Positions 13,877-58,412 of a stretch of DNA of 64,000 nt are shown piece by piece; the first letter of the stretch is position 1, and every line of letters starts with the position of its first letter. The notes under the pieces were generated by a model, which was not told the origin of the DNA, searched no databases, and worked only from the letters and a program-made list of their open reading frames with translations. Source of the stretch: Blasia pusilla (taxonomy: Eukaryota); assembly GCA_050084515.1 (NCBI GenBank), contig CM114271.1, positions 31,868,001 to 31,932,000 of the forward strand. Reading direction: 5' to 3'. The translations under genes and the position numbers were made by a program.

Positions 13877-16800
13877 TGTCGTGCGCATACACATCGCTAC
13901 ACAACCCACATTGCCGGTCACATCTACACATCACACAACACCAATCTTCCCCAATATACGGATAGATCCACACATAAACTAAATACACTCACGCATATAC
14001 ACCGAGACACCCAACAAAATCTAAGTAGTAAAAATAGCTCATCCCGCCTAAAACTCCACTCATGAAACTACTTCGACATATCAAACCACGTCCATCCTCC
14101 GCTATAAGGGAATCCGAACGCTAGCACCCTAACTTCTATACACCCACACACGTATATGCAAGAAAGGCACTCCTAAGGCTCAACATGAGAATGATGGCTT
14201 GAGAAAGCCATCTCTCTCACTCTTAACCCTTGAGAAGAGCCAAAAGGCTCTTCCCTCCAAAAAAGCCCTCGCACTGGTAACCTACGTGCACACGTTACCG
14301 GGTGACACTTGACTCGGTCAACCAGTCATATGAAGGACTAAGACCAAAATAGGGAAATCTCCATAAACAACATTTTTGCCGCAACAGACCTGTCGCCAAT
14401 CTCATATGACATCCCGGGGTCAAAGTTACACACAAACAACCCGTTGACTTTCTATGTCGTCGACGCGATAGAACTCTACCTACATCAAAAAAAGATGTGA
14501 CAACTGTCATGCGCATACACATCGCTACACAACCCACATCGCTCATCACACCTACACACCATACAACACCGATCTTCCCCAACATATAGGTAGATCCACA
14601 CATATACGAAATACACTCACGCATATACACCGAGATCCCACAACTGCCCTACTAATTTCCAGTTGGGTTCCCCTAACTCCAAATAGTAAACACATATGTA
14701 CCTAACATGATCTACCAGCCTATACACATGTAGCACCATCGGTTCCGTCATCCCCGCAACACTGCAACAAAATAGCAACCCGCAGTTTTGATCCCTCCTA
14801 AGAGATCTAACACTCTTGTACCCTGCTCCAAACATAGGCACGGCTTCACGCCTGCCTCAAGAGCTCGTCTACACTTCACGTATCTCAACGCTCGTTCCCA
14901 ACAACAATAATGAAGCTCCGCACCATGGGAAGAGTCATCCACCATGGCATGTATCTCCGTGGGACTATCCGCTAGGGGAATGTCCTCCGCATGTGTGCTC
15001 CTCTCCTCGAAACCTCCTGATAAGCTAGCAGTACCTGTGAACGTTGCCAACTTGGTTATCGTATCCTAACGTGGTCGACCACCACTACTCCCTATAAACA
15101 ACACTGGTAGATGGCTCACTCGTCCATCACCTGATCACCACCCTGGCCGATAAGAAACCGTCTCCTCCAAAAAATCCAGAATAAACCCAAGGGGATACAA
15201 CACCGTTATCCCTACCAACACATCATATGACTCTCCCGGTGTCATAATCACCTGAGTGTGCACCATTGCACTATCCGACTCATGCTGTGGCCGAAGTCTA
15301 ACCACCAACTACTGTCGAGTCATGTACTGCATGGGGGATACGCCCCCAATAGAGGATTGTATCTGAAAGAGACAACGCTCCATGTCGCCTTTCAGCAATC
15401 CCAATGCCAAACATGCCGCCTTCCATAGCATCAAGGGTCGTGCTCCCGAATCAAGTAGGACGCGTTGGGGGTGGTACATTTTACCTGTGGGACTTACCAA
15501 GCGAAACACTCCAGCTCGGTTACCCAATAACACCATACATGGTGTGATCATGGCTCGCTCTATCGCCGGCCTAGCTGGCATATCTACCAACTTCACCGTT
15601 GACGCATGCCATAACACTCAATGGGGGACGTCTTGAGCACCTACTCCGAGGGCAAGTCCACCACCTCCTCAACTACCTCTGAATGAGAAGAAGTCACCTC
15701 TCCATGCTCATTCAATGTGGCAGCCGGCCGGAACACCTCCGGTGGTCCAACTCCCAACGTCGCCAACTCTATGGCGGAAAATAATGGAGTAGGCTCACCC
15801 TAATGACTAGCTCCAACAATGTGGTCCACACTGGCTCCACCTGAGCCGTCTCAGAAGTTGTCTCTCCAACTCCTCATGACGTTGACACACTTGCCTCTCC
15901 CGTGGGTACTATCGGTCATAAAGGCACCATCGACGGTGTATGTAGTGCCTCTGATACTGTGAACAACTGGGGAACCCTGGCCTGCCGCCCATTGGTCCTC
16001 TCATGTGGATCAGTCTCAACCCCACCTCTCGATGGATCGGTTATTCTTGCAGCACCCGGAGTCACCATCGCAGTAGCCTCAACCTGAGCCGCACTACACA
16101 TAAATCCCATCCCCGCTGAATCCTCACCAACATCGTGGTAAGATGTGGAGGTTGGCGCCACACTAGCTACTCTCAACTCCACGCCTGCCTTTAGCTGCAT
16201 CATCGTCATGGTAGCAATCATTAGCTCCAACTGATCCATGCGCGTAAGGAGCGCTGCATCGGGTGCACGTTCTCCATCTCGTGTGACTAGTGATGGCACT
16301 CTTCCACCACGATCATCCACAACTCGATCTCCACCAACTCTCTCGCCCCCAAGTGCTCTACCTACCTTTGGACGTACCTCTTGGCAAAGATCAAAACACC
16401 TATCCCTAGTATGACCATATTGGTGACAATGATCACATTGCAACTGTGGTGCGGCCATCCTCTATGGCTCCTGAGCAATTGGAGGCGCCCGTGGCCCTCT
16501 CCCATGTTGTGGGCAGTCCCTCTGCCTATGTGATCCACCATACGTCCAACAAGCCAACCCTGGTCCTTTCTGGGAAACATATGTTGATATAGGTTGTTGC
16601 CTCATCGGCTCACGATACCCACCTTGCTCTCTAGGCCCACCGGCCCGCTCCCGTGGTATTGGTGCATGCTAGGGCACTTGTGGGTCTACTCCTACTTGTC
16701 GACTCGTTGAATCCTGCAAAAATCTCGTGGTCACCACTGCTCCTCACTCATGTTGAGTTCTATCCACTCAGACAACTCGAAAGATCACCTTCAATGTTGG

Positions 16801-23256: not shown

Positions 23257-23430
23257 AGGGAGATCTTGGGTAATTCATCCTCTCTTTGTTACAAGGTTTG
23301 GATAAAACGTAAAGTGAAATTTCCAATACTAAAATTTTGCACCATTTGAAGCCCACAAAAATATAGCTAAGTGTGCATCAAAATTGGCTTAGAGTAGCAA
23401 CATAAATCTTGAGACTAGCTATATCCTAGC

Positions 23431-23977
23431 TATTACGAATGTTTGGATAGATCGGTGGGATCTAGCAGAGCGTCTGCACGAGTCGTGGAGGACAAGCCCA
23501 GGAGGTCGAGGATGACCTATTGAGGCCCCGGGAAACCTGAGAGACCAGGTTTCCCCTTTGTTTCGGCTCATTTGGAGCCATATAGAGAAACTTACTATTT
23601 TGGGTAAGTTTCCATGTTAGGGATTCCATACACCTCCAGAATCGCAAATCCGACAGCACTTGCGCCCATATTCATGCACACAGAAATCCGCAATTTCCAC
23701 TTTGGTAAGTGGCCCTTGACCCGCTACAATATGTCAAGAGCCAAGGAGATGACCTACGAGCATAGGTTATTGTTGAGAGGGCTTGGGGGAGGGAAGGGGG
23801 TATACTTCCAAGAGAGAGAGCTTGAGAGCTCATTCTCTCTTTGTTGAACCTCTTGGCATAAGGCGGCGGTGCTGTGGTCCCTTGCCTTGTGAGTGTAACC
23901 CAAGCCTCTGAGAGATAGCACACCTTTGAGAGCTATGGTGTGAGATGGTGTAGAGAGAGAGATTGGATCTTACTTTA
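23431..23977 (+). repeat. Terminal repeat A1 (5' end of the gypsy element)
   Basis: Colinear with 35990-36577, 52374-~52890 and 51953-52373. Similarity to the 3' copy stops at GATTGGATCTTACTTTA. Confidence 0.9.
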
Positions 23978-26823
23978 CAAAGAGAGAATGAGAGAGTGAG
24001 AGAGCTTCATGGGGGAGCTTGCTGGTCACTCATTGTTTTTTCAGGTTGCGGATCGTGTTCCCCGTTCAGCGGCTCATGGGAGTGCTCACCGGAGCAAGGG
24101 CTACTTTGATTGTTCTTTGCATTTGCCGATTTTTCGTGTGGAAGACTGGCGCGCAGAAGCGCTGCCCAATTTCTGAAAGGGATTGATTATGGGGGTAGAT
24201 TTCCCATGTTGGTGCTCTCGGGAGCACCATGTAGCTTTCTGATTTTTATTTTTATAGGTTTTACATTTTTGTTGGGAGAAATCAATGCGGAAGCGCTGCC
24301 CAATTTTGTGTAGGAGAAAGAGACATTGGGCTTTACAAAAGTCCCTGTCAGCTTTTACTCAAATATTTGATTCTAAATATTTTTTGATGGTGTTGTAGAT
24401 CATGAAGCTGTGCACGCTGTGCAACAAACAATGTGCAATTTGGATTTTGAGCCAAAAGTTATGGTCAATCTTGCAAAACTGCCATTGCTAGGAAATTTTT
24501 ACAGTGAAATTGTTCAAACCCTAAACTAGCCGCCACGCTGGCGGCCGCCGTCTCCGTTTTAGGTCAACCATCATCATCAATGGTCAATTTTCACCGTCAA
24601 CGGTCCACCGTCCATTGTCCATCCTTTGGTTGCCATTGCCGCCTTTACGGAGAGGAGGGTCTTCCACGACGTTCGTTGATTCTCTAACTTCCGTCGCCAC
24701 CACGTACTTTGTTTTGGCCACCACCGTCATCACAGTTTTGTCATCAACCAGTGATGGAAGATGACCTCCGATTATGGTGTTTGAGTTTTGATTTCATGCT
24801 GCTATGTTGTGATTGGTAGGCGCACGACGATCGAGTACTGTGCCGTGACGCCCGTAGCCGCAACGTGTCGCTGATTGCTGTGCCGTGCCGCTCATGGCCG
24901 CACTGCATCATCTCGATCGTAGAACCGCTGATTCACTAAGGAGCAGAGCGTGTGAATTTTTGGTTGAGGAGGATATGCCGTCGAGTGCCGCACCCCATTC
25001 TCTAGTGTCGTGCTGTTTGTAGTCGTTCCGTGCCCCACTAGACCGCTCGACGCGCACCGCACATCGAGGAGGTTGAGTGGCGTCAATACGAGAGGAGTAC
25101 GACTTGCTGATTGGAGGAGTTCTCTTCATGACTGAGTTGGGTCGGAATTTGCAATTGCTGAGGAGCGACATCGACATGTGTTCAGGTTACCCATTGTGGT
25201 CCTTTACCCTACACGTGTGAGGGATTATGGGATTTGGGTAGTTTATTTGGGGATATTGGGTTGTGTGGATGCTGAGAGCATCATTCATGTATGTGGTTTA
25301 GGGAACATATACATATGTGGGATGTCCGAAGTTGAGGGTAGGTTGTCGATGAGATGATAGTCTGGTCGATTTGCCGCACCACGCCGCGTGTTGTCGCACG
25401 TTACACGTCTCGGGGAGGGAGAGTGTAGATCGAGTGCCGCATGTTTGGGATGGAGAGATTGAGGGATTACTCGCGAGGTTGAGAGTGATTGGGTGAGAGG
25501 GGCACTAGGGTCGTCATGGCGTCCGTTCGGGACTTTGAGAGGCGAGGTGGTGAACCCGAGAGTAGCTCTAGAGGTTTGACGCGGAGTGGCGCGAGGTTCC
25601 GAGGGTCTCCACGTGAGGGACCACCTCAACCTCCTTGTGTGTAATCATCAGACAAGGGGAAGGATGTAGAGGAGTTTGTGAGCACATCGCCACACATTGT
25701 GAGTGGTCCTACCAGTTGGGCGTACCAGATGGACGACCAGGGTAGAGGACCGCGTAGGTTTTCAGATGCAGTAGGCACGATTGAGTTGCACGATTTCATA
25801 GCAGAGTTTAGGAGTTGGTGCAGCTCCTAGCAAACCAAGAACTCTAGAAATTTCAACCCATTTACGTATGGAACGATATGTTCGAGCATTTAGAGGGGGC
25901 GCCCATGGACGATTACCATGAGTTCTCTCAGAGATATGCACGTGAGATCGAGGCGTGGAGGCTCTACTATGACCCACATTATGTGTCATGGACGGAGCCG
26001 TTCCCAGATGAGGAGGAGGAGTCATGAGAGGTTGTTGGATAACCGAGGAGATGTCTTCCAGTTGGTGAGTCCCAGAGGTAGAGCTTTTAGTCTGCAGCGC
26101 GTCTTGTTGGATTCAAGAGCGCAACCCTTGATGTTGGGGAAAGCGTCATTCAGAGGATTGGGCTTGACAAGAGCCGATGTGGAGCGTTGTCCATTACGGA
26201 TATAGACATCCTTGGGTGGAGCAAGTATCAGACAGTATATCACCCGACAGGAGGTCGTGGTGAGGATTCGCCCGGGACATCCTATAGATGAGTCCGTGGT
26301 GCGAGCCAAGGCGATAGTGATTGATGCAGAGTCCTACGACGTCTTGGTTGGTGGAGCAATGTTATACCCCATGGGGTTTTCCCTAGAATACTGGGAGGAG
26401 TCAACGTCCTACAGACAAAGATGGCAGTCAGGTGATGGGTGCCTTAGCTCATTACCCGTTTGATTCACATGTGCAGTGATCGAGCGACGGCCAGGAGAGG
26501 TGGCGGCCTTAGCAGCAATTTGGAGTGCCATCACTTGGCCTAGTGATTTGATTGAGGGACATGTCCATGCAGAGGATACTCCCGTTCCTGACATTTCTAT
26601 GGAGAGGAGTGTTATGGTAGCCGCATCATTCCGTGGAGGAGAGGTGCCGTTGTGGGGCTTGACTGAGGAGCTTCGACGTTTGGCAGATGAGCATGTGCAG
26701 ACCGCGTGGAGCGAGGCGCTTGCACCCGAGCGTGACGGGTCTGAGGAACCTGAGGTAGCATGGAGTGCTACGATGACATCCTTGAATACCACACCCATTG
26801 TGTGGTGTATCCCGGAGGAGGAT

Positions 26824-27745
26824 ATTCGAGTGTTAGATCTCTTTGGAGGGATTAGCACCGGGTTAGCTGTTGTTTTGCAGGCAGGAGTGCGAGTGCAGCG
26901 GTACTTGTATGTGGAGAGTGATGATGTTGCAAGGCGCGTCTCACTACGATATGTGGCGCAGTTACGCCTATGTTTTTCCAACTTATTGTTTGCGTCCGCG
27001 GTACAAGGGTACCAGAGTTCCCTACCGAGGGATATTTCATTGCTGGGGGCGCAAGACTGAGAGCGGGTAGGGACCATTGATTTGGTCATTTCCGGTTGGC
27101 CATGCCAAGGCCAATTGAGTGTTGGACAAGGCACTGGGTTGGCTGATACTCGGTCCAAGTTGTTTTGGGAGATGTTGAGGGTCTTACGGCAGTTGTAGGA
27201 GCACCAATCTCGTTCTCTAGCCTACATTCTGGAAAATTTGCCGATCTTAGGAGTCTCCAAGTCAAGGGTGGTGAGGTGCGTGCCTGGATCAACCCAGAAG
27301 TGTTTTTGGATGTGGCGAGTGTAGGTTCTAGAGCCCATCGCCCGCGTCTATGGTGGACCAACTTGGTGCCCCATGCGGTATTATAGAGGGCATATGCGAG
27401 AGTGGATCGCCCCTCCCATTCGTTAGTGGATTCCATTCTGGATCCATGTCATCGATCACAGGCAGTGAGGCACGATGATCGACCATCGTTGATTGTGGCC
27501 AACAGGGTAGGTAGGCCGCGGGCAGCCTTGCCCACGTTTGTGAGTTTTTCCGCTTCCTATGCATACAAGGAGGCCATTCCTGGCTTGGTTTGGGATGACC
27601 AGGTTCATCAGTTGGTAGAGCCCAATGCCGACGAGAGAGAGCGAGCGATGGGATTTCCCATAGGAGTGACGACAGTACCGTTAGTGTCAGAGGCATCATG
27701 ACGCCATGTCTTGGGTCAGGCGATGGACCTGAACTGCTTGACATG
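26824..27745 (+). pseudogene. DNMT3-like C5 cytosine DNA methyltransferase domain inside gypsy pol (copy 1; stops and a frameshift)
   Basis: Motif I IRVLDLFGGISTG; motif II YLYVESD; motif IV DLVISGWPCQG (CCATGC at 27100); motif VI YILENL; motif VIII AHRPRLWWTNL; motif IX ERERAMGFP; motif X RHVLGQAMD. Confidence 0.9.
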
Positions 27746-29860
27746 GATCCTCAGCTTAGGAGTGGCTGAGCAGCGCCGTATGAGGTCGCGATAGATCACA
27801 GCGGTTGCGTTGGTGAGCCCCATGCCTACCGGGACGATGGAGGCAATGGCTGGGGGCAAGACCGGAGGAGATCTACACACCAAGGGAGATTGGGAGAGAC
27901 ACCCTTGGACTTCTTGGGATGTTTTGCAGGTACGCCAAGAGATGATAGCCACAATATCGAGCGTAGTTCCGGGCACTGCACATGGAGGAGATCAGAGTTT
28001 GCAGTTGGCTGCAAGAGAGCGGCCGAGTGTTGTTGTTCGAGACGGGGTTGCACCATAGCAACCACCGATACCCGCGCCAGAGAGTCCTATCGTAGTCACG
28101 ATGGAGACTTGGGAGCCAGATATGGGCCCTAATTGACAGGAGGAGAGCAGCGCCGGATATATTAGTTCCTCAGGAAATACAGGAGCTGCTTTGAGTTTTG
28201 CATGGAGGATTTGGGTATGCTGAAGGGACCGGGGATCCGCAATGAGTTGTCGAGTGATACGCCGATGTTTCGATGACCCTACAAGTATAGTGAAATGGAG
28301 AGGGATTTGATTTAGAGTAGGAGCCAGGACTAGTGGAGATGTCGCATGGGGAGTACGCGTGTGCCACTATCATGCCCGCCAAGAAGGATGTGCATGGCAA
28401 CTGGACGCATAGGCGGATGTGTGGGGATTACCGACCTATCAATCGGCACACGAAGTCGGATAGGTATGCCATGCCCACCCTTGAGGAGATCTTTGAGGCA
28501 ATTGGTCACGCAAAGGTCTTCAGTTCATTGGATTTGCAAGCCGGATACCATCAGTTGCCTATCAGATTGGAGAACAAGCGAGAAGACGGCATTTTGGGAC
28601 ATCGATCCTCACTTGAAGGATTGTTTGTACTAGTGGCGGTTCTTACCATTTGGGTTAAAGAACACCCCAACTGAGTTTCAGAGGGTCACGGATAGGATCT
28701 TGGCTGGGCTGGATTTTACTAGGTGTTATATTGATGACATCGTAGTCTTTAGCGCCACGGTTGAGGAGCATGAGCAACATCTAGAGGAGATGATTTGACG
28801 ATTGTAATAATATGGGCTGAAGCTACATCCAGGCAAGTGAAAGTTCTTCTACGACCAGATTGAGTACTTGGGTCATACGATATACCCAGGGGGCCTTGGT
28901 GTTCAACAGACAAAGGTAGAGGCTATCTCACGCATTCCACGCCCTACACATGTGACTCGTGTTCGCGCATTCATGGGATTGGCACATTTCTATCGGCGGT
29001 ATGTCAAGGGATTCAATTCGATTGCGAAGCTGCTAACCTTGCTGACCAAGGTGGATCACGAGTGGCACTGGGAGGATGAGCAGAAGCGAGCATTTTAGTT
29101 GCTCAAGGGCAGATTGTCGTCCGCGCCCATCTTGAGGAGATCGATCAGGGGGCGTCCTTTCCAGTTGCACACAGATTAGAGCATGTTGGGACTTGGAGCG
29201 GTGCTCACCCAACATGATGATGAGGGTAGAGAGTTCGTGGTGACTTATGCTAGCCGCTCGAACAACGCTACAGAGGCAAAGTACAGCTCGCATGAGGGTC
29301 AGTGCTTGGTTGTAGTGTGGGCTGTTGCGCATTTTAGGTGTTACTTATTCGGCAACCCCTTTACCATCATCACTGATCATCAACCATTGAAGTGGTTGAT
29401 GGAGTCCGAGAATCATACAGGGAAGCTTGCGAGATGGGCTCTGTTGTTGAAGGAGTATGATTTTCACGTGGTGCATAGACCTGGGACACTCAATCAAGAT
29501 GTAGATGGGTTGAGTCGTAATCCATGCCCTAGTCACCGAGATGGGACTGGAGCTCGATGGTATGGAGAGAGTGATGAGGAGTCAGTGCCAGGATGGCATG
29601 CGTCAGCCTATTTAGGCATGTTGGCTATGGAGAGCTAGAGTGTGGAGACTTTGATGGCGAGGTCTAGTGGAGAGTCCTTGGATCCCGAGGCGAGTGAGGA
29701 GACGACATGTGGCCGAGATATTCATGATGATGGAGTAGTCTTGTAGTACCTTTGTACAGGTAGCGTTGCGAGACCCGTGGGTACTAGAGAGCGGGATCGG
29801 ATCCTACAGCGGGCCAGACGGTTCCGTTGCGAGGGGACATATGTTTTGAGGGTTTGGGAG

Positions 29861-32800
29861 GTAAATGGTAAATGGTAAATAGATCAAGCCCGTGGGACCC
29901 AAAGGGTCAAAAGGCTGAAAAACACATTACAAGTCATTCATTGACGACTGAAAAAAGATCCTTAAGACCTTCTCCTAGCTCTGACCTAGAGCACTTGAGC
30001 GATGAATGATGACGTCCCTAATATAACAACCTAAATCATAGGCACTAGCTGTAGTAAAGAATAGAAATTCTCCACATCTATTTTATGAGCTAGTCTTATT
30101 TCTCCATACCTTGGACATGTAACAAACATATGCTCTTCATCCTCAATATTTTCTCCGTCACATAACCTACAAATTCGTTCACTTCTATCAATTTTAAACC
30201 ATCGTCCTTCCTCAATTCCTAGCCTATGAGACCCAGTTCTATGACGTGCGATAATATATCGTAAGAACGTGGAGATCCTTGCAAGTAGGTATCCTTGTTC
30301 ACAATATACAAGCATAGGATTAACATGAAGTTGATAAAACTCCATTTTGGTGCCCGCACTGCTCCAAATGATGTTGAGAGATTGCTTCAGTAGATGCTCA
30401 CGGAGGGCCATCAGTTTCAAGTCCCAATCGCGTTCTGCCACATTCCACTTTGAAGACCAAGTCACCACATCCTCCATCCACCCTATGGAACGTGTGGCTC
30501 GCAAAGCTTGATGAGGGAGGCGAGAAACATCAAGAGATCTCACTCTTTACTTGATCAAGTGATGGTCAAGTAAAGAGCTTCAGCTTCTAGAGGAAGAAAA
30601 CCTGTTTCCGCAAGAAGAATAGCATACGGAGTTTGGTTTCTTACACCCAATTCTTCTTGTAGAAAGATCTTTTGCACTCTTTCCACGCGCTCCCAACCTG
30701 TCTTCTTACAACTAGGGCCCCAAACTTGGGTCCCATATAAGACCACCGGCAACACTAAGCTCCTAAATAAGAATTTCCTAAGACTCCAAGACACAAGATG
30801 AGCTCTTCTACACCGGTTTAAAAATGAATATAGAGCTTTGTAACCAGCTTCTACTCTCTTTTGCACGTAAAGTGCCCAACTATAGTCATGAGACAAATCA
30901 ATGCCTAGATGTTTGTAACTCTTCACTTGTTCTAATTGTAGACCTTTGTAAAAGAACGAGAACTTGGATCTAGTACCCACTATAATGACTTTAGACTTCT
31001 CCATATTAACCTCCATCTGATTGTGGGTACAAAACCTTGCCAAAGTGTCGAGGTGCTTTTGTAAACTAATGTCATCAGGTGCTAGTAATATGATATCATC
31101 TGCATACAATAGAGCTTTGATGACAAAGTCCCCAAGCTTGACCCCTTCACTATTACATTCCTCCAACCACTTTTCGATATCATCTATGAAAACTCCAAAG
31201 AGTGTAGGGGACAGAGGGCAACCTTGAATGACTCCAATGGTGCTCAAGATCTCTTGAGTTTGTGAACTTTGATCTTGGCCCGAACGGAATGGTATAACGT
31301 GGCCACGGCTGCTAGGAGATTTTGTGGAACTCCAATGGCCTTTCCCATAAGAGCTTGCGAGGTACAGTATCAAAAGCTTTCTTGAAATCGATGAAGCCGC
31401 AAAACAAAGCTTTTCCATTGCCCTTAGATTTCTCCCATAAAACACGCAAGGCCAAGATATGATCGATGGTGTTGTATGTTGGACGAAAACCAGCTTGGAC
31501 CCGTGCTCTCTTTTGGAAAGACTCTGTCCATGTGCTCAACTTCGACTCCACCAATTTCCCAAACAACTTGGCAAAAACACTACCCACCATGATAGTGCGA
31601 TAGTTTGTTACCAAGTCCTTCCTTCCTGATTTATGAATAGGGACAATCTCCGTAGCGACCAGGATGAAGGAAAACCATAGATAGCAGCATCACCCAATAA
31701 TTTGGTGAGGATCGGTCCAATACAATCTCCTCCCCACTTGAAAAGTTCAATAGAAAGACCATCCAAATCCTCACATTTACCATTCGCCAATCTTCTTAGT
31801 TGAGTCATCACCTCTCCTTCAGAGAATAAGCCACGTATTCCTTCACAACGTGGCATAGACGTAGCATCGGGGAAGAAATAGAGCTTTTCGGCAAAAGATA
31901 TCAAAGACTTGGGATCAAGAATAGGTTTTGAAGACCGTACTACTAACCGTCTCCAAAATGATTTGGGGTCCTCATGCACTCCTTGTCAAGGACTCTTGTT
32001 TTCGCCAAGCAAGAAAGCTCGTTTTTCGATTTCACCAAGTATTTGTAAAGGCTCGTCATAATAAGCCGACTTGGGATATCCAAAGATTTATCACTGCTCG
32101 TGCCCTTGCTTGCTTGCATTGAGTCAAACCACCCATTACAAGGCGACCTCCTAGCACTTCTATCCCTGTGGCGCGAAAAAGAACTTAAATGCACTTTGTT
32201 TTTGAGCAATTCCGTTAGTTGCATACTTGCCGTGTTTGGATCAGGGCTCCATACAATGCGAGTCAAGTGTTCTTGTAAATGTAGCATATAAAGATCTTTT
32301 TACCAGGATCTAAGCGAAACTTGGGAGAAGCTAAAATAGATTGACATGTCGAGAGAGGAATTTCCTTTGACAAAGTGAGAGAGTAAACAAGAGAGGTGCA
32401 TGATCCGATTCAGTGAGGTTCTAGAATATCAAATGTAGAGATAAGAGAGCTATCGTGAGGCGAGGGACAGAAGATAATCGATGGTGCTAGCGCCGGTAGA
32501 GGAGAAACACATATTGGAGTGAGAGTTGGGAAAATGAGAGGTTCCATTAAGAACTTTCAAATTACAAGTGGCTCCAAAGGTTAAAAAAATACTCTGTCAA
32601 AGGATTTGTAGAAAGATCTCAAGAGATTCTAGACCATAAACCATCCTCATATTCTTGAGAAGAGGAGAAATCAAGGAATCACTGAATTGGGTAAATTGAG
32701 CAAGATGCGTGTGCGAGCATTGAAATCTCCAACTAGAAAGACTTCACCTTTGCTTTGATATTTGAGAACATCCCCAATAAGTCGATGGAACGGTTGACTT

Positions 32801-34522
32801 CGATTGTGAGTGCGTGTTGAGTAGATAGGCATGGAGAGTGGTGTAAAATAACAAAGCGCCAAATAACAATAAGATCCCGAACCAAACCAAGACGTAGCCA
32901 ATGATATTGACCCCGATATCTTGATCTTCTAGATGAATGAGAGGTAGAAATTGAGACTGATGAAAGTAGCAATACCGCCATAACCCCTTCTGCCCGTTGC
33001 CTTCTCGATTCCATGTCGATCCTACCAAAGTAAACCCTTGCATCTCTGCAATAGTATTGCTCTCATGTTCCCAAGTCTCCACAATATTAATAATATCTGC
33101 CATCTCCCAAATTGGTAGAGCACTCACATACTTTGCTGTTGAAAGGCCTCGTATATTCCACATCAACACTCTCAGCTTCTTGGATTGCTAGGTTGATAAC
33201 TCTCTTTTTCTCTTGGTAACAATTGCTCGCCCATCTCGTAGATAAGCAATAAAACCTGCTTCTTGAGCCTCTTTGACCTTTGCAAGCTCCTTTCTCCTAG
33301 CTTCGACTTGTAGAGGTGTGAGATCAGGATCCAACCATATCCTCCGTCCTTTGAGAATGGCCTTGTTAGCCATGGCGAGATCACGTTGAGTTTGATCAAC
33401 AAACTTGACTACAATGGCACGAGGTTGTGTGCCCGTTTTCCCAATACGAAAAGCTTGAGCCAAGTCCGGGTTATGAACATGAAGTGTATCAACCAAGAAC
33501 TTAGTGACAACACTCTTCACCTCTTCGCTCTCTGTTTCCGGTAAACCTGAGATTCTCACATTCTTTCTACGGGCAAATTGGTTTTCTTTTTCTATCTCTT
33601 GCTCTTGTGAGAAAGAGATATGAGCAACCTTGTAGCTTCAAAGATAAGATTTCATTTTCACTTCTAAAGTTTCAACAACCTCATGCAATCCTAAACTATT
33701 GGGAGTAGTCACCAAGGATGATGCCTTCTCTTGAACATCCGCAACAGATTTGGAAAGATCCAGCATCACACTAGAACTATCTTTCAACACTTTCTTCAGA
33801 ACCTCTTGCGTTGCCTTCAACTCTCGGATTTGAATATGTGCATGGTTTAATTGAAAATTTTGTACCTTGAATTCTTGTCGAAGCTCTTTCACTTCATGCA
33901 AGACCACTTGCACTAGATTCAAGATTTCGTCTTGAGTGGTCATCCTGTAGTCGACTTCACTGCATCCCAGAAAGTATAATTGAATCTCCAACACCACACA
34001 ACTTCTGCTCTAGAAGTTGGTTGTACTTGAAATTTCTAGGATTAAGACGCCTCTAGAAATTTCACGTTGAGTCCAAATCTCAGCTTCATATGACACTCCA
34101 CCTCAAAGTTATGGCCTCAGCAAGATTCAGATCTGAAATGCTCAAATCTAGAAGTGCAGAAACTCAAATCTTTCACAACTTCGTATATATAACTCGGTTG
34201 TGCTTGCAAATCTGAGAGCTAGGGAGCCTCTTTATACTTCACGTTGCCTCCAAATCTTAGCTTCATATGACACTCCACGTCAACGTTATGGCCTCGGCAA
34301 GATTCAGATCTGAAATGCTCAAATCTAGAAGTGCAGAAACTCAAATCTCTCACAACTTCGTGTGTATAACTTGGTTGTGCTTGCAAATCTGAGAGCTAGG
34401 GAGCCTCTTTATACTCCACGTTTCCTCCAAATCTCAGCTTCATATGACACTCCACCTCAAAGTTATTGTCTCGGCAAGATTCAGATCTGAAATGCTCAAA
34501 TCTAGAAGTGCAGAAACTCAAA
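29861..34522 (-). mobile_element. Near full-length non-LTR retrotransposon (LINE, RTEX-like), inserted antisense in the gypsy integrase
   Basis: ORF1 ~33943-33188 has a coiled coil and RISGLPE...FRIGK...PRAIVVKF...IWLDPDLT (RRM/Tnp22-like). ORF2 has an APE endonuclease (WNIRGL, VETW, GDFNAR), RT (NYRTI, QAGFR, FIDFKKAFD, GVIQGCPLSPTLF, LLYADD) and a C-terminal CRLC...EDEEH...C finger. 3' tail (ATTTACC)n. Several frameshifts. LINE identity is firm; the clade name is tentative. Confidence 0.9.
34061..34522 (-). repeat. 177-bp tandem repeat (about 2.6 units) forming the LINE 5' UTR
   Basis: CTTCATATGACACTCCAC starts at 34084, 34261 and 34438 (period 177). Units are near identical. Confidence 0.92.
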
Positions 34523-35873
34523 AATGGCAGAGGATGCATAGTGCCACATCCTTCATAGAGAGCACGACTAGTGCAGCATGCCCATGAGGAGTTGGGTCAC
34601 TTTGGGATGAAGCGGATGTACAACTTGCTCTTGATGCAATATTGGTGGCGAGGCATGCAGATTGACGTTCAACATTTTGTTGCCAAGTGCATGGTGTGTG
34701 ATCGGGTTTGAGCATCGTTCAATGCTCTGACTCCACAGTTGCATCCATTAACGATCATGGGCATAGGGTATATATGAATTTTGGATTTTGTAGCACCTTT
34801 GCCTTTGACGGAGCGTCAGAGTCGTTATGTGTTGGTGATGGTCGAGACTTCTCATAGTGGATCGAGTTGGTTGCATTGCCTAACAAAGCGAGTGAGGGAG
34901 TAGCTTATGCCTTCCTTGACAGAGTGTTGAGTCATTATGGTGCACCGGCTGAGGTATTGACAAACGAGGGTACCGAGTTTCGTGGTGAGTTCCAAACCTT
35001 GTGTTATTAGGCGCTGATCGACCACCACACGACTTCGCGAGATCATCCTGAGACAGATGGATTAGCCGAGAGAGTTATGCAGACGGTGAAAAGGGGTTTA
35101 CGCAAATATGGCTTGAAGAGAGATCACCTAGGAGATTGGGACCTCCAGTTGCCGTGGTTGGCGATGGGATACAGATTCAGCAGGCAAGCATCCTTAGCGT
35201 CTTTTTCACCGTACTTGCTACTTTATGGCCGAGAGCCAGATTTACATGCGGCCATTCGTCGAGATGCTGAAGAGGTGTTGGACCTTGATGACCCAAATGT
35301 ATGGATGCGAGCATGTTCTCAAAGGGCTGAGTTGTTTCGGAGAGTGATGCCCATGGCGTTCGAGAACTTGGTGATTGTGCAGCATTGGGATACGTTGAGG
35401 TACGCGACTATTCGGGATGGTGGTTATCGACCAACTGTCCGGAGGTTTCATTAGGGAGGTTATGTGTACTTGCAGCAGACGACACCGACGACGTTGGATG
35501 TGACTGCAGGGCGCACTATCCTGAGAGTGCGTGACGTTTTTCCATCTGGTGTTCTCTTCCTGGAGGGACGCGATGGTATGGTATGGAAGGACCATGTGCG
35601 TAATTGTGCGCCATGTTACCTTCCTAACATTGATGGTACAATAGATCCGAGCTTAGTAGTAGTTCCTACAGGCTTTGGCGTTGTATGTTGTGTGGTTTTG
35701 CTCGTGGTGGATCTGCTCGTGGTGTGACATGGATGACAGGAAGGCGACTAACGATGGGGCCACATGAGCACGCGACCTTTCTGCTCTTAGCATCATAGAG
35801 ATGTATGTCGTGGTAGGTAGGGATAAATGACTATCAGGAGTAAGAGGGACCTTACCACCAACTAGGGGGCGAT

Positions 35874-36704
35874 TGTAGATATTTTGGTACTTCTCACCTC
35901 TATGTATGGATGCCATGAGTAAGCATGGGATCGTGTGTGTTCGATAACAACAATGTATGTTGTGTAGCGATGTGTATGCGCTCGACAACTGTCACGACTG
36001 TTATGATAGATCGGTGGGATCTAGCATAGCGTCTGCACGAGTAGTGGAGGACAGGCCCAAGAGGTCGAGGATGACTTGTTGAGGCCCCACGAAACCTGAG
36101 AGAGTAAGTTTCCCCTTCGTTTTGGCTCATTTGGAGCCATATATAGAGACTTACTATATCGGGTAAGTTTCCATATTGGAGATAGTTGACTTTCCACTTT
36201 GGGAAGTGGCGCTTGAGCTCTCAAGCTCTCTCTACTTGAGGTATACCCCCTTCCCTCTCCCAAGTCCTCTCAATGGTAACCTATGCTCGCAGGTCATCTC
36301 CTTGGCTCTTGGGAGATGACCTGCGAGCATAGAGAGGGTTACCGTCGAGAGGGCTTGGGAGAGGGAAGGGGGTATACCTCCCACAGAGAGAGCTTGAGAG
36401 CTCATTCTCTCTTTGTTGAACCTCTTGGCACAAGGCGGAGGAGCTATGGTCCCTTGCCTTGTGAGTGTAACCTAAGCCTCTCATTAGGAGAGTTGGTTTG
36501 GTTTGACATGAGAGAGAGTGCACACCTTTGAGAGCTATGGTGTGAGATGGTGTAGAGAGAGATTGGTTCTTACTTTATTGGAGATATTTTGGTACTTCTC
36601 GCCTCTGTGTATGGATGCCATGAGTTAGCATGGGATTGTGTGTGTTTGTGTGTGTGTTCGATGATAGCGATGTATGTTGTGTAGGGATGTGTATGCGCAC
36701 GACA
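35874..36704 (+). repeat. 3' terminal block B1 (35874-35987) - AC - A2 (35990-36577) - B2 (36578-36704)
   Basis: B1 and B2 both read AGATATTTTGGTACTTCTC...GATGTGTATGCGC(T/A)CGACA. A2 matches A1. Confidence 0.9.
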
Positions 36705-39652
36705 TAGCCGACACCAACGCTATTTCAAAATCTTGGATGATCCTAGCCACTAAAGTCGACATCCACCCAAAGGTTCTCCATATTATGGTCGACTTTATCA
36801 TCCATGTGATGCTAGATTTTTAATGTCTCGAAAAAAAATGTAATGAAGAGATAGTAGGAGCAATTCAACTGAAGGGGTTAAGGTGGGCTACAAAACCTTA
36901 TAGAAGTTTAATCTTTTAGTTTACTTATAGAAGATTTTGCACATGTGAGTTCATGTGGAAATTTTTCTAATATTTTGTCTAGAAGTGACGGTGGGAACAC
37001 TTTGTCGTCGCCCTCTATAATGGACAACGACTTCTTACCTAGTTTAGGTGAAAAAATATTAGAGGTTTATTTTAATGTGTGTTTAATTGTGAAGCAAATA
37101 GCTGATTTTGAAGAGGAAGATTACGCACACTTTTTTTGGAGACATACTTGAATTTGGACCTAGATCTATGGCCTCAAAGGCAGGAGATAATTTGAATGCT
37201 TTTATGGAAGAACCCTTTATATTTTCATATTAGCATAAATAATGGGAAGAATAATAGAGCAATATGATAGTTGTGCAAAGGGAAATTCACATCTAATCTT
37301 ATTAGACTACAACAATATCTAATTGAGAAATCCATTCAAAAAATAGAATGGAAAGAGGCAGTTGCAAGATATTCAAATTTGATGGCAATTTTCCGTATTC
37401 AACATAGTTGCAAAAAAAATTGTTAGTCGGTACATAGATGGCAAGTACATTTGGGAGGATAGCTTGTGTTCAATCTCAACGCGAAGAGAATGAAGCAATT
37501 TTCCAAATTTACAAATCTACAATCTCCATACTTGATGTTTCTACCAAGCAAGATTTGAATCATGAAATTCGTGCCAATACTATTAGTATCCATTGGTGAG
37601 TCCTCTAAGTTATGATTAGTTTAGGAAAACTCCTATAAAATCATCCTATAAGACACCAAAATATTCCTTGTTCAACAAAGAAATTGTAGATTTTAATTTA
37701 AATATGGGAAGGGGCACATTTTAAGATCCATTACCTTCTTTATGAAAAAAATTAAAATCATGATGATATCCATTGGAAGTTTGTGCTTACATTTATTATA
37801 TTGGGATGGTTTTTCGACTCAACTTAAAATCCATATTCTCAAAAGGTTGTAAGGATGGTCATCGTTGCTAAATTGGGAAATGTATACTAGATTCAATCCA
37901 AATCAAATGAGATATGATAACTTACCTTTGTGGAATTCTCATAGTGAGATAAATATGAAAAGGACAATAGAGAAAGGGAAGAGATACAAGTATTATCATT
38001 TCTAGCAATAATTGGACCATATCAAGGAATGCCTCTTATGAATATTTTGGTAACATGTATAAGGGCAAGTTGTTTAAGTCATGATAAAAAAATACAAAAC
38101 AATTAATAGGAAGGACTACTCTTCAAGCCAAGAAGATGGATCCAAAGGAATTTCTTTAGCGTATCCCAAATAATATGGTGTTCTGCAAGTCAGAAGTTTA
38201 TTTTTTTAATATATATGCTATGGAAATCCTTCCTTGTGGGGGAGGATTTCTATAGCAAGTATGGAATTTCCTTAGCATAAATTAATTCTCCGAAAAAAAT
38301 AGGTGCCAACATGTAGACAAGAGAAACTTAAAAACTCATTTGGTAAGAAAAGAACAAGAAGATTGTAACAAGATCATGCAGTCCAAAAATTGATAGACTA
38401 AAAGAAAGTTGAAAGGAAATTGGAAACAACAAAAAAGAGGATGTGAAGGAGAATGTGAAAACTACCTCCCAATTATTGGCATGAAAAATTGAGATCATGA
38501 TGTTAGGCCCTGCAAGTAGCAAAAGGTTGATAAAAGCAAGGAGAATTATTTGGATTGATTGCAACCTTTCCAGTATAAGGAGGGCATGTGTACATTTACA
38601 GCTAAAAATCTATGAGCTCATGAGAAGAAGGTCCATGCTTCTTGAATTAAGTGGAAAAGATTTTCTAAATTGAAGTTTGAAAAGATGAATAAGTTTAATC
38701 TAAGATCAAAACTAAATTAAAATAGTTACTAACAAAACACCCAACAATATTTCAGGTCTTTCTCCTCCTCCACCTACCTTTCAAAACTCATACATTTTAT
38801 TTTCTTACATACTCATGACTTTTACTAATAATTTCTATTTTTTCCCAATTTAGAATAGATAAAACTATTTAATGTTTTATTCATAAATACCCACATTTAA
38901 CTAGTTGATTTGTTTCATTTTTTCACGTAAGAGTTTGCTGTTACAGAATACATAATTTGATGCTCTTGAAGTGGAAAGATCAAATGGAATAAAAACAAAA
39001 AATTTGGACTAATTCCAATGATAGGGTTATTTCTAGTTGAATATGTTTTGCAAACCCACCAAATCAATAATTATATTGTGAAACAATTGTTACTAATTTC
39101 GAAATTTATCATGCAAAATAGTAAATCAAAATAAGAAAGATAAACATCTAATTAGATTCACACTAATCCCATGTCCAGTTTCCTTGGGAATGAAAATTCA
39201 CAATTTCCTTTGTATATTTAGTAGGGTTATGAATGCAAATTCACCCTTAGTATAAAAAAGTAAGAAAAAAACAACGAACATTTCTATCTACCTACTCATC
39301 CTTGGACGTTCAACGTAATACAACCGTTGTTGATAATCACATTAGTAACTTCACTTTTAACTTGATAAGGGTACTAAAGAAAATTTTCAAGCTTTAAATT
39401 CTTACAATAACCCAAATAATAAAATGACAATAATCTCACCTTAATAATAGAGAATGTTTGTGGACAAAAGTCAATCCTGTCCATAATAGCATTATATAGA
39501 CCCATTTCAAAAACAATCTACTAACTTTGGTTAGGGAGCTACGATTATTACAATCCCTTCCAAATTCGGAGTGGACTATTCTGTAGATATTTTGGTACAT
39601 ATAAATTTCTACTAAACACTATAACATCAGTATAAAGGCTGGCAAAACACAG

Positions 39653-51703: not shown

Positions 51704-51952
51704 TGTCACATCTTTTAGAATAGATAGGCGAGTTCTAGTAGAGCGCCTTCAGAGATACTGAAGGACAACCTCAAGAGGTCAAGGATGACTTGTTGAGGCC
51801 ACGGGTAACTTGCGAGAGCATGTTTTCCCTTCGTTTCGGCTCATTTGGGAGCCATATTGAGGAACTTACTATTTTGGGTTAGTTACTATTTTTGGTAAAG
51901 TTGACTTTCCACTTTGGGAAGTGGCCCTTGACCCACTACAACTGGTCAAGAG
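51704..51952 (+). mobile_element. 5' part of an A repeat of another family member, interrupted at 51953
   Basis: Starts TGTCACA and is colinear with the first ~250 bp of A. Breaks at GTCAAGAG, where a new A copy begins. Confidence 0.8.
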
Positions 51953-54900
51953 TATCATGACTTTCAGGATAGATCGACAAGATCTAGTAGAGCGCCTTCA
52001 GAGATATTGGAGGACAACCTTAGGAGGTCGAGGATGACCTATTGAGGCCACAAGTAACTCGAGAGAACAGGGTAAGTTTCCATTTAGAGTATAGTTGAAT
52101 TTCCACTTTGGGAAGTGGCCCTTGACCTGCTACAACACGTCAAGAGCCAAGGAGATGACCTGCGAGCAGAGGTTAACGAGGACATGGCTTGGGAGAGGGA
52201 AAGGAGTATACCTCCAATTGAGCTCATTCTCTCTTTGTTGAACCTCTTACCACGAGGCGGCGGAACTATAGTCCCTTGCCTTGTGAGTGTAACCAAAACC
52301 TCTCATTAGGAGAGTGGGTTTGGTTTGACATTTGAGAGAGACATGTGAGAGTGCACATATGTGAGAGCTATGGTGTCACGTCTTTTAGGATAGATCGGTA
52401 AGATCTAGTAGAGCGCCTTCGCGAGTAGTAGAGGACAAGGTCAAGAGGCCGAGGATGACGTGCTGAGGCTCCGGGAAACTTGAGAGAGCAGGTTTTCCTT
52501 TCGTTTCGGCTCATTTGGAGCCATATTGAGGAACTTACTATTTTAGGCAAGTACCATTTTAAGTATATGGTCAACTTTCTATTTTTTGGAAGTGGCCCTT
52601 GACCTCCTACATCAGGTCAAGAGCCAAGGAGGTGACTTGGGAGCATAGGTTACCATGGAGAGAGCTTGGGAGAAGGGAGGGGTATACCTCGAAGAGAGAG
52701 AGCTTGAGAGCCCATTCTTTCTTTGTTGAACCTCTTAGCATGAGGCGGTGGAGCTATGGTCTTGCTTGCCTTGTGTGTGTAACCCAAGCCTCTCATTAGG
52801 ATAGTGGGTTTGGTTTGACATTTAGAGAGACATGTGAGAGTGCACACATTTGAGAGCTATGGTGTTGAGAGAGATTGGATCTTGATTTATTCGAGATATT
52901 TTGGAACTGCTCGTCTCGTTGTTTGGATGCCATGAGTTAGCATGGGATCGTGCATGTTTGTGTGTGTGTTTGGTGACACCGATGAATGTTGTGTAGCGAT
53001 GTGTATGCGCACAACAATGGTGTTGTAAGGGAGATTTGATCTTATTTAACAAAGAGAGAATGAGAGGTTGAGAGAGCTTCAATGGAGAAGCTCGCCAGTT
53101 ACTCGCTATTGGTGCAGGTTGGGGATCGTGTTCCCCATTCAGCGGCTCATGGGAGTGCTCATCGAAGCAAGCGCTACTTGTTTTTTTGTTTTCCATTGCC
53201 AATTTTTTGTGTGGAAGAATGGCGTGCGGAAGCACTACCCAAATTTCTTTAGAGATGAAGTTTGGGGGCGGATTTCCCCATGCCAATGCTCTCGGGAGCA
53301 CCAAGTAGCTCAATAGTTTGTGAATTTTACATGTCTGAAGTTTTGTGTGGAAGAAATTAGCACGGAAGCGCTGCCGATTTTGTCCTAGGAGTGCAAATTT
53401 GAAGACTGCATGACACTTCTCGTCAGTTTTTGTGGGAAAGTTGAATGAAAAAAATTAGACAACATCATAGATCTCAAAGTTGTGCACGTTGTGGAAGAAA
53501 TGGTGCGCAATTCTAAGCTGCGAGCAAAAATTTATGGTTGATCTTGCAAAATTGCCATTGCTAGGCAATTTTTAGGGTTAAATTGTTCAAACCCTAAACC
53601 AACCTCCGCGTGGGCGCCGGCGGCGTCTGTCACCATCACCATCATCGTCAACGCTCCGCAGTCAATCGTCAACCGTCACTATCAAATATCCTCCGTCAAC
53701 GGTGCACCGTCACCGTCACCGATCCACCGCCGCCATCATCGTAGTTTCGTCATCAACCAGTGATGGTAGATGACCTCAAGTTGACGGTTTTTTGAGTTTT
53801 CATTTCATTCTGCTATATTGTGATTGGTAGTCGCTCGACAATGATCGAGTACCATGCCGTGACGCCCGTAGCCGCAATACGCCGCTCGTGGCCACACTGC
53901 ACTGTCTCGATCGCGGCCGCTCCTTCACTTAGGTGTAGAGCGTGTGTATTGCTAATTGAGGAGGATATGATGCGGAGTGCCGCATCCCATTGTCGAGTGT
54001 CATGCTGTTTTGTAGCCATTCGGTGCCGCCAGCACCGCACCGTGCCACTGGATCCGCACCGCATAATGAGGAGATTTGAGCATCGTCAATAGCATAGGGG
54101 TACGACTTACTGATTGGAGGATTTTGTTGTCCCGACTGAGTTGGGGTCAAGGTTTGCAGTTGCTAAGGAGCAATCGACATTTGTTCAGGTTACCAATTCT
54201 GGTCTTTTTCCTATACGTGTCAGGGAATTCCGGGTATTGGGTAGTTATTTGGGATATTGGGTTTCATGCAGATGCTAAGAACATCGTTGATGCATGGGTT
54301 TAGGGCACATAGACCTGTGTGGGGTGTCCAGAGTTGAGGGTATGTGCTCTTCATGAGATGATAGGATAGTAGTTGATTTGTCGCACCACGCCGTTTGTTG
54401 CCGCACAACAAACTTCTCAGTGAGAGAGACCGTAGATTGAGTGCCGCATGTTATATTGCACCATAGCAACCACCAACACTTGCGCCGGAGAGTCCTTCAA
54501 TAATCATGATGGAGACTTGCGAGCCAGATATGGGCCCTAAGTTGACAGGAGGAGAGCGGCGCCGGATACATCAGTTCCTCAGGAGTTATAGGAATTATTT
54601 TGTATTTAGCATGAATGATTTGGGTACATTGAAGGATCCAACCATCCACATTGAGTTGTCGAGCGACACGCCGATCTTCTGATGACCCTACAGGTACAGT
54701 GACATGGAGAGGGCTCTGATTCAGAGTAGGAGCCAAGACTTGGTTGGAGTAGGACTAGTGGAGATGTCACATGGAGAGTATGCATCTGCCACTATCATGC
54801 CCGCCAAGAAGGATATGCATGGCAACTGGATAGATAGGCGGATGTGTGGAGATTATTGACCTATCAATCAGCAGACGAAGTCCGATAGGTATGTTATGCC

Positions 54901-56871: not shown

Positions 56872-58412
56872 TGTCATGACCATACGGATTATGTCGTAGA
56901 GTATAGTGTGCTAGTAGAGGCCATACCATATGTAGGGCTGCAGTATCTAGGTAGAGATGCGATTTCATACATAGGGTTGGGGGTTACTCAATTGAGGGTG
57001 ACTTTTCCACTAGGGCCCGCTCTTAGGTTGGAGGATATAAGGTGGAGTGCACTCAAAGAACAGTTAGTTCTTTGAGTTGAGCCTATTGCGTTGGGAGTTA
57101 GCCTTGGTAGTGAGTAGAGCTCTTGGCTATTGTGTTTCCCACAAGCTTTGACCTAGATTCTCCCATCGTGGAGTGGGTTTGGCTCGATTGTATGTGATTC
57201 TATACATGTTTTATGACAGTAGGTCTTCGAGGCAACTTGTGGTAGCTCGGGGCGAGTGGGCGTGAGAGGCGGAGTAAGGAGCAAGGAGCAAGCAAGCAAG
57301 CTTGCTTGCTTGAGCGTGAGGCAGTTTTTGCAGGATTTGTGATTTGAGTGTTGCATAACTGGTCACCCATCTTTGGGCTATTCTGCCTGAAAGACGCTTA
57401 ACTGCTGAGTTCTTAACTATGTTAGTGTACACACTGGTGTAGCTCATTTGGTGCTGTTCGGAGATGTGTTAGGCACTTTATGCATCTCAGGTTTTTGGTT
57501 GATGTACCTCTAGCACATAGTACGGTGTAGCCTCTCCATGCAAGTGATACTTTTAGGTGCTGCGAGTCCGACTAGCACGTCATAGACCCGCGGCGCAGTA
57601 GCTATTACGTTAGAATTGTGTGGTGGGTTCTGTGGATTCAGGGGGCGCCACGTTTGGTGGATTGTGTTACCTTGATTTCCATTTGCGATTGGAGGGTTGT
57701 TCGTTGGACTTCCTGTGTTTGGATCTCCTCCATCGTTGCTTCTTGCTTGCACGCCCATTGTTAGAGACTCCAACTCAATGGTTGGAGTCCTCCCATTGAG
57801 TTGGAGGACTTCATGCAGGAGTTTGATACGTGGTGTGATATGCAGATGTCGCGGAACGCCACGTTGTTTACACCCTTCTTGGCTTGGAAGGGGTTGTTTC
57901 AGCACTTGGAGGGACCACCCATGGATGATTACCATGAGTTTAGGAAGGACCATGTTGCTGAGATTGAGGTGTGGAGACAATATTGGTCTCCAGGCTATGT
58001 GTCTATCACCCATGGTGGTATTGGTAGTAGTGCTCCTACTATGCCAGCCAGCCCGACGTTGAGTGGTACGAGTACGAGCCGGAGTGGGGGTACTAGTGGA
58101 GGTACCCATGGAGGTACCAGTGGAGATACCTATGGAGGTACCAGTGGGGGTACTAGTGCCCCACCATCGTTCAACCCGGTTGCAGAGTTCTTCAAGAGGT
58201 TGAAGAAGAACTATCAGGGAGTGAAGACAGAGAAGTTGAGGAGTCTTCAAGAATTTGAGCGAAAGATTGGTGAGAGTCTTCGTGAGGCATACACTTGTAT
58301 GCGACGCTTGATTTCAGTTACCCAGGGTGTGATTGAGGCTTAGGCAGTCCAATTTTGGTATGGGATGTTGGACAGAGAGTTGCGCCGTAGGGTACGTGAT
58401 GCTACTCTTATG

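Follow-up and report, generated by a model that had tools for sequence, protein, structure and literature searches.

Split direct repeats take the place of two long terminal repeats in an abundant, integrase-bearing gypsy family of Blasia pusilla

Split terminal repeats are treated as a hallmark of retroelements that move with a tyrosine recombinase, so how can they bound a gypsy element whose enzyme appears to be an integrase? Such an element lies in a stretch of 64,000 nucleotides (nt) of Blasia pusilla contig CM114271.1, hereafter called the window, and all coordinates given below are window positions. Its integrated copies read target-site duplication (TSD), X, primer-binding site (PBS), internal part, purine tract, B, two spacer nucleotides (NN), X, B and TSD, where X is the repeat that was named A in the original prediction on this DNA. 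The layout can therefore also be written A1...B1-NN-A2-B2, and further copies and sequencing reads support it as a property of the family and not as a one-off deletion. The structure is well supported, and the mechanism is what we infer from it. It seems plausible, though not quite probable, that this is a Ty3/gypsy family with a DDE integrase which integrates from complementary DNA (cDNA) whose ends have been joined, in a circle or by a template jump, and which is then cut at the B/X junction. Split repeats in so abundant an integrase-bearing gypsy family would in any case make the hallmark non-exclusive.

The element from which the layout was first read (copy 1) consists of the TSD TAGC, X1, the internal part, the purine tract, B1, 2 nt, X2, B2 and again TAGC. 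Direct repeats were detected at 23431-23977 (A1), 35872-35987 (B1), 35990-36577 (A2) and 36578-36704 (B2), which confirms the repeat coordinates and the TSD of the original prediction, with the correction that B1 starts at 35872, not 35874; in the naming used here, X ends at 23976 (X1) and at 36576 (X2). Identity of the two X repeats amounts to 84.5% across the aligned columns and to 87-96% within ungapped blocks, B1 and B2 are 90.4% identical without gaps, and both the B pair and the A1/A2 blocks lie far above chance. X1 has a private segment of 91 bp (23610-23700), and 572 reads skip directly from 23609 to 23701. The 5′ end of copy 1 reads TATTAC.., a decayed version of the TGTCAC that is kept at the start of X2. 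The purine tract adjoins B1, which places it 118 nt before X2, and the bases directly before X2 are not purine-rich either in copy 1 or in copy 4, a diverged relative described below. The spacer in the centre of the palindromic junction ..GACA NN TGTC.. differs in its bases, being AC in copy 1, GT in copy 4 and AA in the consensus of reads.

At first sight a second copy (copy 2) seems to break the rule, since a B is found at 52890-53016 between its X and the leader. This B belongs to a solo X+B unit of 643 bp with a TSD of its own, ATGG. The sequences flanking the solo unit align with the X end and the primer site of copy 1 in 24 of 30 columns on the left and in 26 of 40 columns on the right; this alignment and the ATGG TSD together indicate that the solo unit is nested in the X of copy 2, and that the junction between X and primer site is the same in copy 2 as in copy 1. 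Thus, the statement that a second copy shares the junction of A with the leader is shown to be right once the nested unit is removed. The solo unit is, in addition, a second and independent case in which the start of X and the end of B are bounded by a 4-bp TSD, and such TSDs are found at both of the units that have both of their ends in the window (TAGC and ATGG).

The 3′ end of the diverged relative (copy 4) repeats the layout of copy 1 in the order purine-rich tract, B1′, GT, X′ and B2′, followed by unrelated flank. Only the last 29-57 nt of B can be aligned between the family of copy 1 and that of copy 4, while the architecture is fully kept. B1′ and B2′ of copy 4 are 88.5% identical, so that the two B repeats within an element (90.4% and 88.5%) are more similar to each other than are B repeats of different elements (77-87%), and the B1 copies do not group across elements. 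Both B copies of one insertion therefore seem to come from one template. The 5′ ends of copy 4 and of another diverged copy, copy 3, were searched for in the window and not found.

Evidence for the family as a whole comes from one sequencing run (X19), sampled at about 1 in 100 of the run, in which 171,150 reads matched at a likeness of at least 80%; the joints described in this text are taken from 15 of the 673 joints. At 80% likeness, read depth over the gypsy parts is about 1100-3300-fold, which means that the family is very abundant. An X end runs into the leader without B in 320 reads (142 with the joint 36553 to 23954 and 178 with the joint 36509 to 23945), and the largest shorter sides of these reads, 84 and 61 nt, extend well into the leader. 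The purine tract (35869) is followed by a B2-like B in 134 reads, a joint present also in contigs of three other runs, and an X1-like X is followed by B in 25 reads. Loose ends behind B2 number 1056 and have the consensus NN + TGTCAC.. (agreement 0.37), so that B is most commonly continued as B-NN-X. No joint between the end of B and the leader is among these 15 of the 673 joints. With two of two 5′ ends and two of two 3′ ends in the window having the split-repeat form, together with the solo X+B unit with its TSD and these read junctions, the claim of the original prediction that the split layout is not a one-off deletion is borne out. Relatives sought by the conserved end of B in metagenomes came to 4 loci, all of them chance matches without similarity to the window; the junction pattern had 0 matches in prokaryote genomes, and viral contigs gave 0 relatives by protein and 0 matches by DNA pattern.

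Is the enzyme of this family really an integrase? Copy 3 (59806-64000), which is diverged and better preserved, has matches to RVT_1, RT_RNaseH and Integrase_H2C2 in that order, namely the gypsy pol order of reverse transcriptase (RT), RNase H and integrase, and the coding region of copy 1 is collinear with it by tblastn. Integrase_H2C2 is matched in copies 2 and 3 with E-values of 1e-8 to 1e-9. In copy 1 the RT_RNaseH match is strong (E 9e-32) and that to RVT_1 weak (E 0.006; 16.7 bits vs a cut-off of 29.6 bits), the integrase core gives only weak rve matches in its stop-free pieces (E 0.05-0.06), and the open reading frame (ORF) at 35011-35451 matches residues 1260-1333, in the integrase region, of the Ty3 Gag-Pol chain 7q5b (E 2e-4). 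To judge from these matches, the integrase of copy 1 is real but broken. The weak rve and Ty3 Gag-Pol matches and the TSDs TAGC and ATGG support what had been proposed from the sequence alone, an rve-type DDE integrase in an element that ends in TG..CA and makes a 4-bp TSD. In copy 1 a nested element of 4.66 kb without LTRs (long terminal repeats) interrupts the integrase gene at 29860/34520; homology resumes at 34520 by tblastn, and 533 reads skip this nested element (29861 to 34524). A search for a tyrosine recombinase, which the original prediction had called for, gave no Pfam match among the 48 stop-free ORFs and ORF pieces scanned (copies 2 and 3 contributing 10 of these and the nested non-LTR element about 8), all copies in question being decayed.

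If X runs straight into the leader, what would prime reverse transcription? In self-priming of the Tf1 type, the PBS is complementary to the first bases of the transcript itself, and replaces the site for a transfer RNA (tRNA); the 5′ primer is released through a cut by RNase H. Exactly after X, in two of two 5′ ends of the window, there is a stretch of 16-17 nt with perfect complementarity to X, and the next best complementarity to X among 285 windows of the leader is only 10 nt long. The partner of this stretch in copy 1 lies downstream of a TATA-like box, and the same motif recurs at 36401-36416 in X2 and at 52223-52238 in the X of copy 2 itself. When the RNA 23829-23996 is folded, the minimum-energy structure pairs nt 1-16 with the primer site (z -3.46), and 0 of 200 shuffled sequences fold as well. 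This suggests that the 16-17 nt site is a PBS of the Tf1 type, the transcript start being placed by means of the TATA-like box. With such a site directly after X, no tRNA site would be needed, and an X that runs into the leader would be a working arrangement of repeat and primer site, not the product of a deletion. Replication independent of tRNA, as supposed in the original prediction, accordingly looks right as far as this predicted site goes. The last 33 nt of X start with TGG and were also considered as tRNA-like, but this reading was dropped: the stretch is the end of X in both copies, and ARAGORN finds no tRNA gene in the window. Nor does B appear to be a structured RNA, as the four B copies fold no better than shuffled sequences (z -0.05 to 1.84).

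These signals put the element into two different frames. The signals of reverse transcription give the order purine tract / B-NN-X / PBS, and the unit of integration is X...B, with TG..CA ends and TSD and with X-B as its solo form. Read in this way, an integrated copy would be a circular permutation of the expected cDNA. How could the one be made from the other? The RNA, R-U5-PBS...purine tract-B-NN-U3-R, would extend from a start in X1 to a putative poly(A) site in X2, and the two usual jumps would convert it to the linear cDNA (B-NN-X)-PBS-internal-purine tract-(B-NN-X). The only ends of integrase type in this molecule, TG.. and ..CA, would be those in the palindromic B/X junction inside the repeat. 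The right cDNA end, which is the end of X, would then be joined to the left end, which is the start of B, either in a circle of the 2-LTR type or by an end-to-end template jump; integrase would cut the B/X junction of the repeat beside the PBS, and the opened molecule would be inserted with a 4-bp duplication. Both B copies of a new insertion would in this manner descend from B1 of the parent, and the X/B joint would be remade in each cycle. There is no homology at the X/B joint, and no series of homology-guided jumps was found that puts a B after the right-hand X, which points to end joining (a 2-LTR-type circle) or an end-to-end template jump as the source of the joint. Under either route of joining, the B/X junction would be the recognition site of the integrase. 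In the original prediction, the internal B1/A2 junction had been singled out as the template of both termini; the junction itself stands, its templating role is unproven, and the sequence signals point instead to a site for integrase. Three observations would be explained at once by a model with joined ends: the co-variation of B1 and B2, the limits of the repeats (X stopping at the primer site and B beginning at the purine tract), and the X-B form of the solo units.

A stronger form of this proposal is that the integrase obligatorily uses joined cDNA, whether a 2-LTR-type circle or a tandem, and that its attachment site is the built-in palindromic junction of the two termini; we regard this as possible and rather doubtful. 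If true, it would be a convergent counterpart of the strategy of DIRS and Ngaro elements, and the old circle-junction model of retroviral integration would have found a natural example. Integrases of foamy virus and HIV-1 are reported to cut palindromic LTR-LTR junctions (PMC1180852; PMC1905944).

Several points weigh against integration from joined cDNA. A circle has two identical junctions, and the opening of the other one would give X-B-NN-X-PBS...purine tract-B, a form seen at 0 of 4 element ends in the window; an unexplained bias is thus needed, although the number is small, with two ends of each kind and a single solo unit as the structural sample. Circles of the one-LTR type would give X...B copies without repeats. 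Both the transcript start and the poly(A) site are predictions made from sequence. Every copy in the window is old and decayed, as seen from the 84.5% identity of X1 and X2, and other end forms, for example B followed by the leader, may be present among the remaining 658 joints.

Can the same structure and the same self-priming work without any circle? RT might add the terminal B itself: having reached the end of the right-hand repeat, it would jump to the start of B, which is the minus-strand 3′ end, and integrase would then trim the B-NN extension of 118 nt on the left and use the end of the terminal B on the right. Such a jump yields the observed form only, and hence explains the 0 of 4 ends with the alternative opening; furthermore, the two X/B joints of the family (X2/B2 of copy 1 and that in the solo unit) are uniform and have no extra bases, and extensions of cDNA ends derived from the primer are known in self-priming elements, the cDNA of Tf1 being reported to carry single-stranded primer-derived ends (PMC11042837). 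However, no homology at the joint would guide the jump, and synthesis would need to stop, or the product to be cut, after exactly one B. We therefore hold this route to be unlikely, albeit worth keeping in mind. Somewhat less likely still is that the copies seen here are dead-end by-products of replicating masters that the window does not sample and that have a different structure, for instance ordinary elements ending in identical repeats or episomal circles. We found no way for the observed form to recover B2 through ordinary two-jump reverse transcription, and only four element ends and 15 of the 673 read joints enter the comparison. Against by-products speak the great abundance of the family and the frequency of the X-to-leader joints (320 reads), as well as the co-variation of B1 and B2 in two diverged lineages, which is expected if the observed form is the one that is copied.

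The remaining explanations give up the split structure itself or its link to an integrase. In the first of them, the element is an ordinary gypsy with two full X+B LTRs, the 5′ B and a tRNA-type site of copy 1 having been deleted between short repeats and B1 being the relic of a tandem LTR. The sequence of copy 2, in which B is followed by one base and then TGG.., and a likeness between the X end and the bases that precede the leader could be taken in this sense, but the stretch in copy 2 is the nested solo unit with its TSD, and TGG.. belongs to the end of X in copy 2 itself. In both 5′ ends the self-priming site adjoins X, the reads join X and not B to the leader among the 15 joints considered, and the B1 copies of different elements do not form a group. 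An ordinary gypsy is for these reasons very improbable, and a deletion in copy 1 as its explanation is contradicted by the self-priming site and the solo unit of copy 2. Even more improbable is that the split repeats serve a tyrosine recombinase of the DIRS, Ngaro or PAT kind, encoded by intact copies or supplied in trans: the layout A...B-A-B is indeed the one described for these elements (PMC5890265; PMC7192593), in agreement with the original prediction, whereas two independent 4-bp TSDs, the TG..CA ends and the gypsy pol order all point to a DDE integrase, and the 48 ORFs and pieces scanned, decayed as the copies are, gave no match to a recombinase. Errors of assembly, or tandem insertions that met at the 3′ end by chance, can hardly be credited, for even though the B1-X2-B2 block is not covered in full by any one read or listed contig piece, two unrelated loci of the window share the layout in diverged sequence, and every junction is found in many reads, some of them also in contigs of three other runs.

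How does the Blasia family, with its cDNA ends perhaps joined before integration, compare with known systems? It agrees with Ty3/gypsy elements in the pol order and in having a DDE integrase, TG..CA ends (TGTCAC..CGACA) and a short TSD; it departs from them in copies 1, 2 and 4, which lack a pair of identical LTRs with outer ends that serve for integration, and in the polypurine tract, which adjoins B1 in place of a 3′ LTR. Self-priming gypsy elements of the Tf1/sushi type, and the plant lineages for which self-priming is predicted, share with it the DDE integrase and the order of pol domains; they would also share a PBS that replaces a tRNA site and is complementary to the presumed first bases of the transcript. 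They have two identical LTRs that are at the same time the integration ends, whereas here the repeat B-NN-X is offset from the integrated unit X...B, and Pfam scans of the element's ORFs detected no chromodomain. According to Neumann et al. (2019), self-priming is predicted for 12% of plant elements, and TSDs of 4 bp occur in 6.2% (PMC6317226).

With DIRS, Ngaro and PAT elements, the family shares the split repeats A1...B1-A2-B2 and the internal junction of the two termini. This layout is said to be typical of DIRS-type elements, for which published models restore the ends through a joined or circular form (PMC5890265; PMC7192593), and TOC1 is described as a non-autonomous DIRS element (PMC9940879). 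Those elements have a tyrosine recombinase without a DDE integrase and insert without TSD, whereas the Blasia element has an integrase, TG..CA ends, a 4-bp TSD and the gypsy order of pol. It shares the DIRS layout, and perhaps its logic, but not its enzyme. The retroviral 2-LTR circle of foamy virus and HIV-1 likewise contains a palindromic ..CA NN TG.. junction inside DNA as a possible integrase substrate. In retroviruses this junction is known only from unintegrated circles, and it serves a side route; here a copy of it is built into the integrated elements, and the route would be obligatory. In the literature searched, with supplements and most subscription journals outside its scope, no description of an integrase-bearing element with split direct repeats was found.

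If integration goes via joined ends, the molecule made by reverse transcription and the one used for integration may differ in their ends, and the family offers a natural system for asking whether an integrase normally uses an end junction instead of free ends. There is also a practical side to it. A standard LTR finder would take X1 and X2 for a pair, overlook B2 and then fail in the TSD test, and so the family, in spite of its very deep read coverage, is likely to be mis-bounded or discarded in annotations.

Table 1. Features of the split-repeat gypsy family in the window, with the grounds on which each was assigned
Feature	Position	Strand	Basis or remark
Left TSD TAGC, copy 1	23427-23430	+	identical 4 bp at 36705-36708
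X1 (= A1), sole repeat at the 5′ end	23431-23976	+	direct repeat of 35990-36576
TATA-like box TATAC, putative function	23801-23805	+	read from sequence; about 28 nt upstream of the predicted transcript start
Predicted RNA 5′ end (start of R), 16 nt	23829-23844	+	perfect reverse complement of 23977-23992
Predicted self-priming PBS, copy 1	23977-23992	+	16-nt perfect complementarity, directly after X1
Decayed gag/DNA-methylase-like region, RT, RNase H, N-terminal part of integrase	26032-29860	+	tblastn with copy 3 ORFs; Pfam
Nested non-LTR element (like a long interspersed nuclear element), foreign to the gypsy element	29861-34519	-	minus-strand match to RVT_1
Zinc-finger end, catalytic core and C-terminal part of integrase, with stop codons	34520-35451	+	homology to copy 3; Pfam; Ty3 Gag-Pol match
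Purine-rich tract adjoining B1, presumed plus-strand primer site	35860-35871	+	sequence; similar tract before B1′ of copy 4
B1, internal copy of the 3′-terminal segment	35872-35987	+	direct-repeat match to B2
Spacer AC, centre of palindromic junction ..GACA NN TGTC..	35988-35989	+	sequence
X2 (= A2)	35990-36576	+	direct repeat of X1
B2, 3′ terminus ending ..CGACA	36577-36704	+	direct-repeat match to B1
Right TSD TAGC, copy 1	36705-36708	+	identical to 23427-23430
Copy 2's own 5′ X	51952-52373, continuing 53021-53047	+	interrupted by the nested solo unit
Nested solo X+B unit, 643 bp, TGTCAC..CACAACA	52374-53016	+	TSD ATGG at 52370-52373 and 53017-53020
Predicted self-priming PBS, copy 2	53048-53064	+	17 nt complementary to copy 2's own X
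Copy 4, 3′ end of diverged relative	14635-13877	-	B1′ 14635-14505, GT 14504-14503, X′ 14502-14008, B2′ 14007-13877

The gag side of the family has a feature of its own. The best protein matches of a 605-aa ORF in copy 3 (59806-61623, + strand; 26032-27587 in copy 1) are from Marchantia polymorpha (59-66% identity), Sphagnum and Calypogeia, which by themselves point to a bryophyte-like host, probably a liverwort. The ORF has a weak match to the C5 DNA-methylase domain PF00145 (E 2e-4; 21.3 bits vs a cut-off of 22), and PF00145 is a precomputed domain in many of its homologues from Marchantia, Sphagnum and Calypogeia, one Marchantia protein having also RVT_1 and RNase H. A gypsy element with a C5 DNA-methyltransferase (DNMT) domain in its polyprotein, KnitGypsy-Dnmt3, has been described from Klebsormidium (PMC5890265). 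The two share the DNMT domain, in so far as the copy 3 ORF lies just under the Pfam cut-off and its bryophyte homologues carry PF00145; the account of KnitGypsy-Dnmt3 in that paper mentions neither liverworts nor unusual terminal repeats, and the likeness is by domain only. Loose read ends are abundant around 26031 (1107 before it and 1359 behind it), which indicates that copy 1 is without a segment between leader and gag that most copies have, and the read consensus before this break contains an ATG well placed for the start of gag.

Smaller rearrangements are seen in the individual copies. In X2 of copy 1, some 100 nt from the promoter side of X are duplicated in inverted orientation (36214-36404), and the outer end of the direct arm adjoins the predicted transcript start; opposite-strand read joints (91-110 reads each) indicate that the duplication is present in other copies as well. 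Snap-back synthesis at the 5′ end of the RNA might have left it behind. In copy 2, homology to copy 1 stops at 56870, and its 3′ end is outside the window; directly upstream of its own X lies a partial X (positions 1 to about 250) at 51704-51950, and from this arrangement copy 2 may be inside an older unit of the same family. Copy 4 has a partial gag at 14874-15611 (- strand), corresponding to residues 44-293 of the copy 3 ORF, and it is internally deleted, about 240 bp past the gag part being followed by the purine tract and B1′. The nested non-LTR element in copy 1 has three tandem repeats of 177 bp on its 5′ side (33982-34522) and a 7-nt simple repeat as its 3′ end, and a fragment 94% identical to it is found at 58412-58814.

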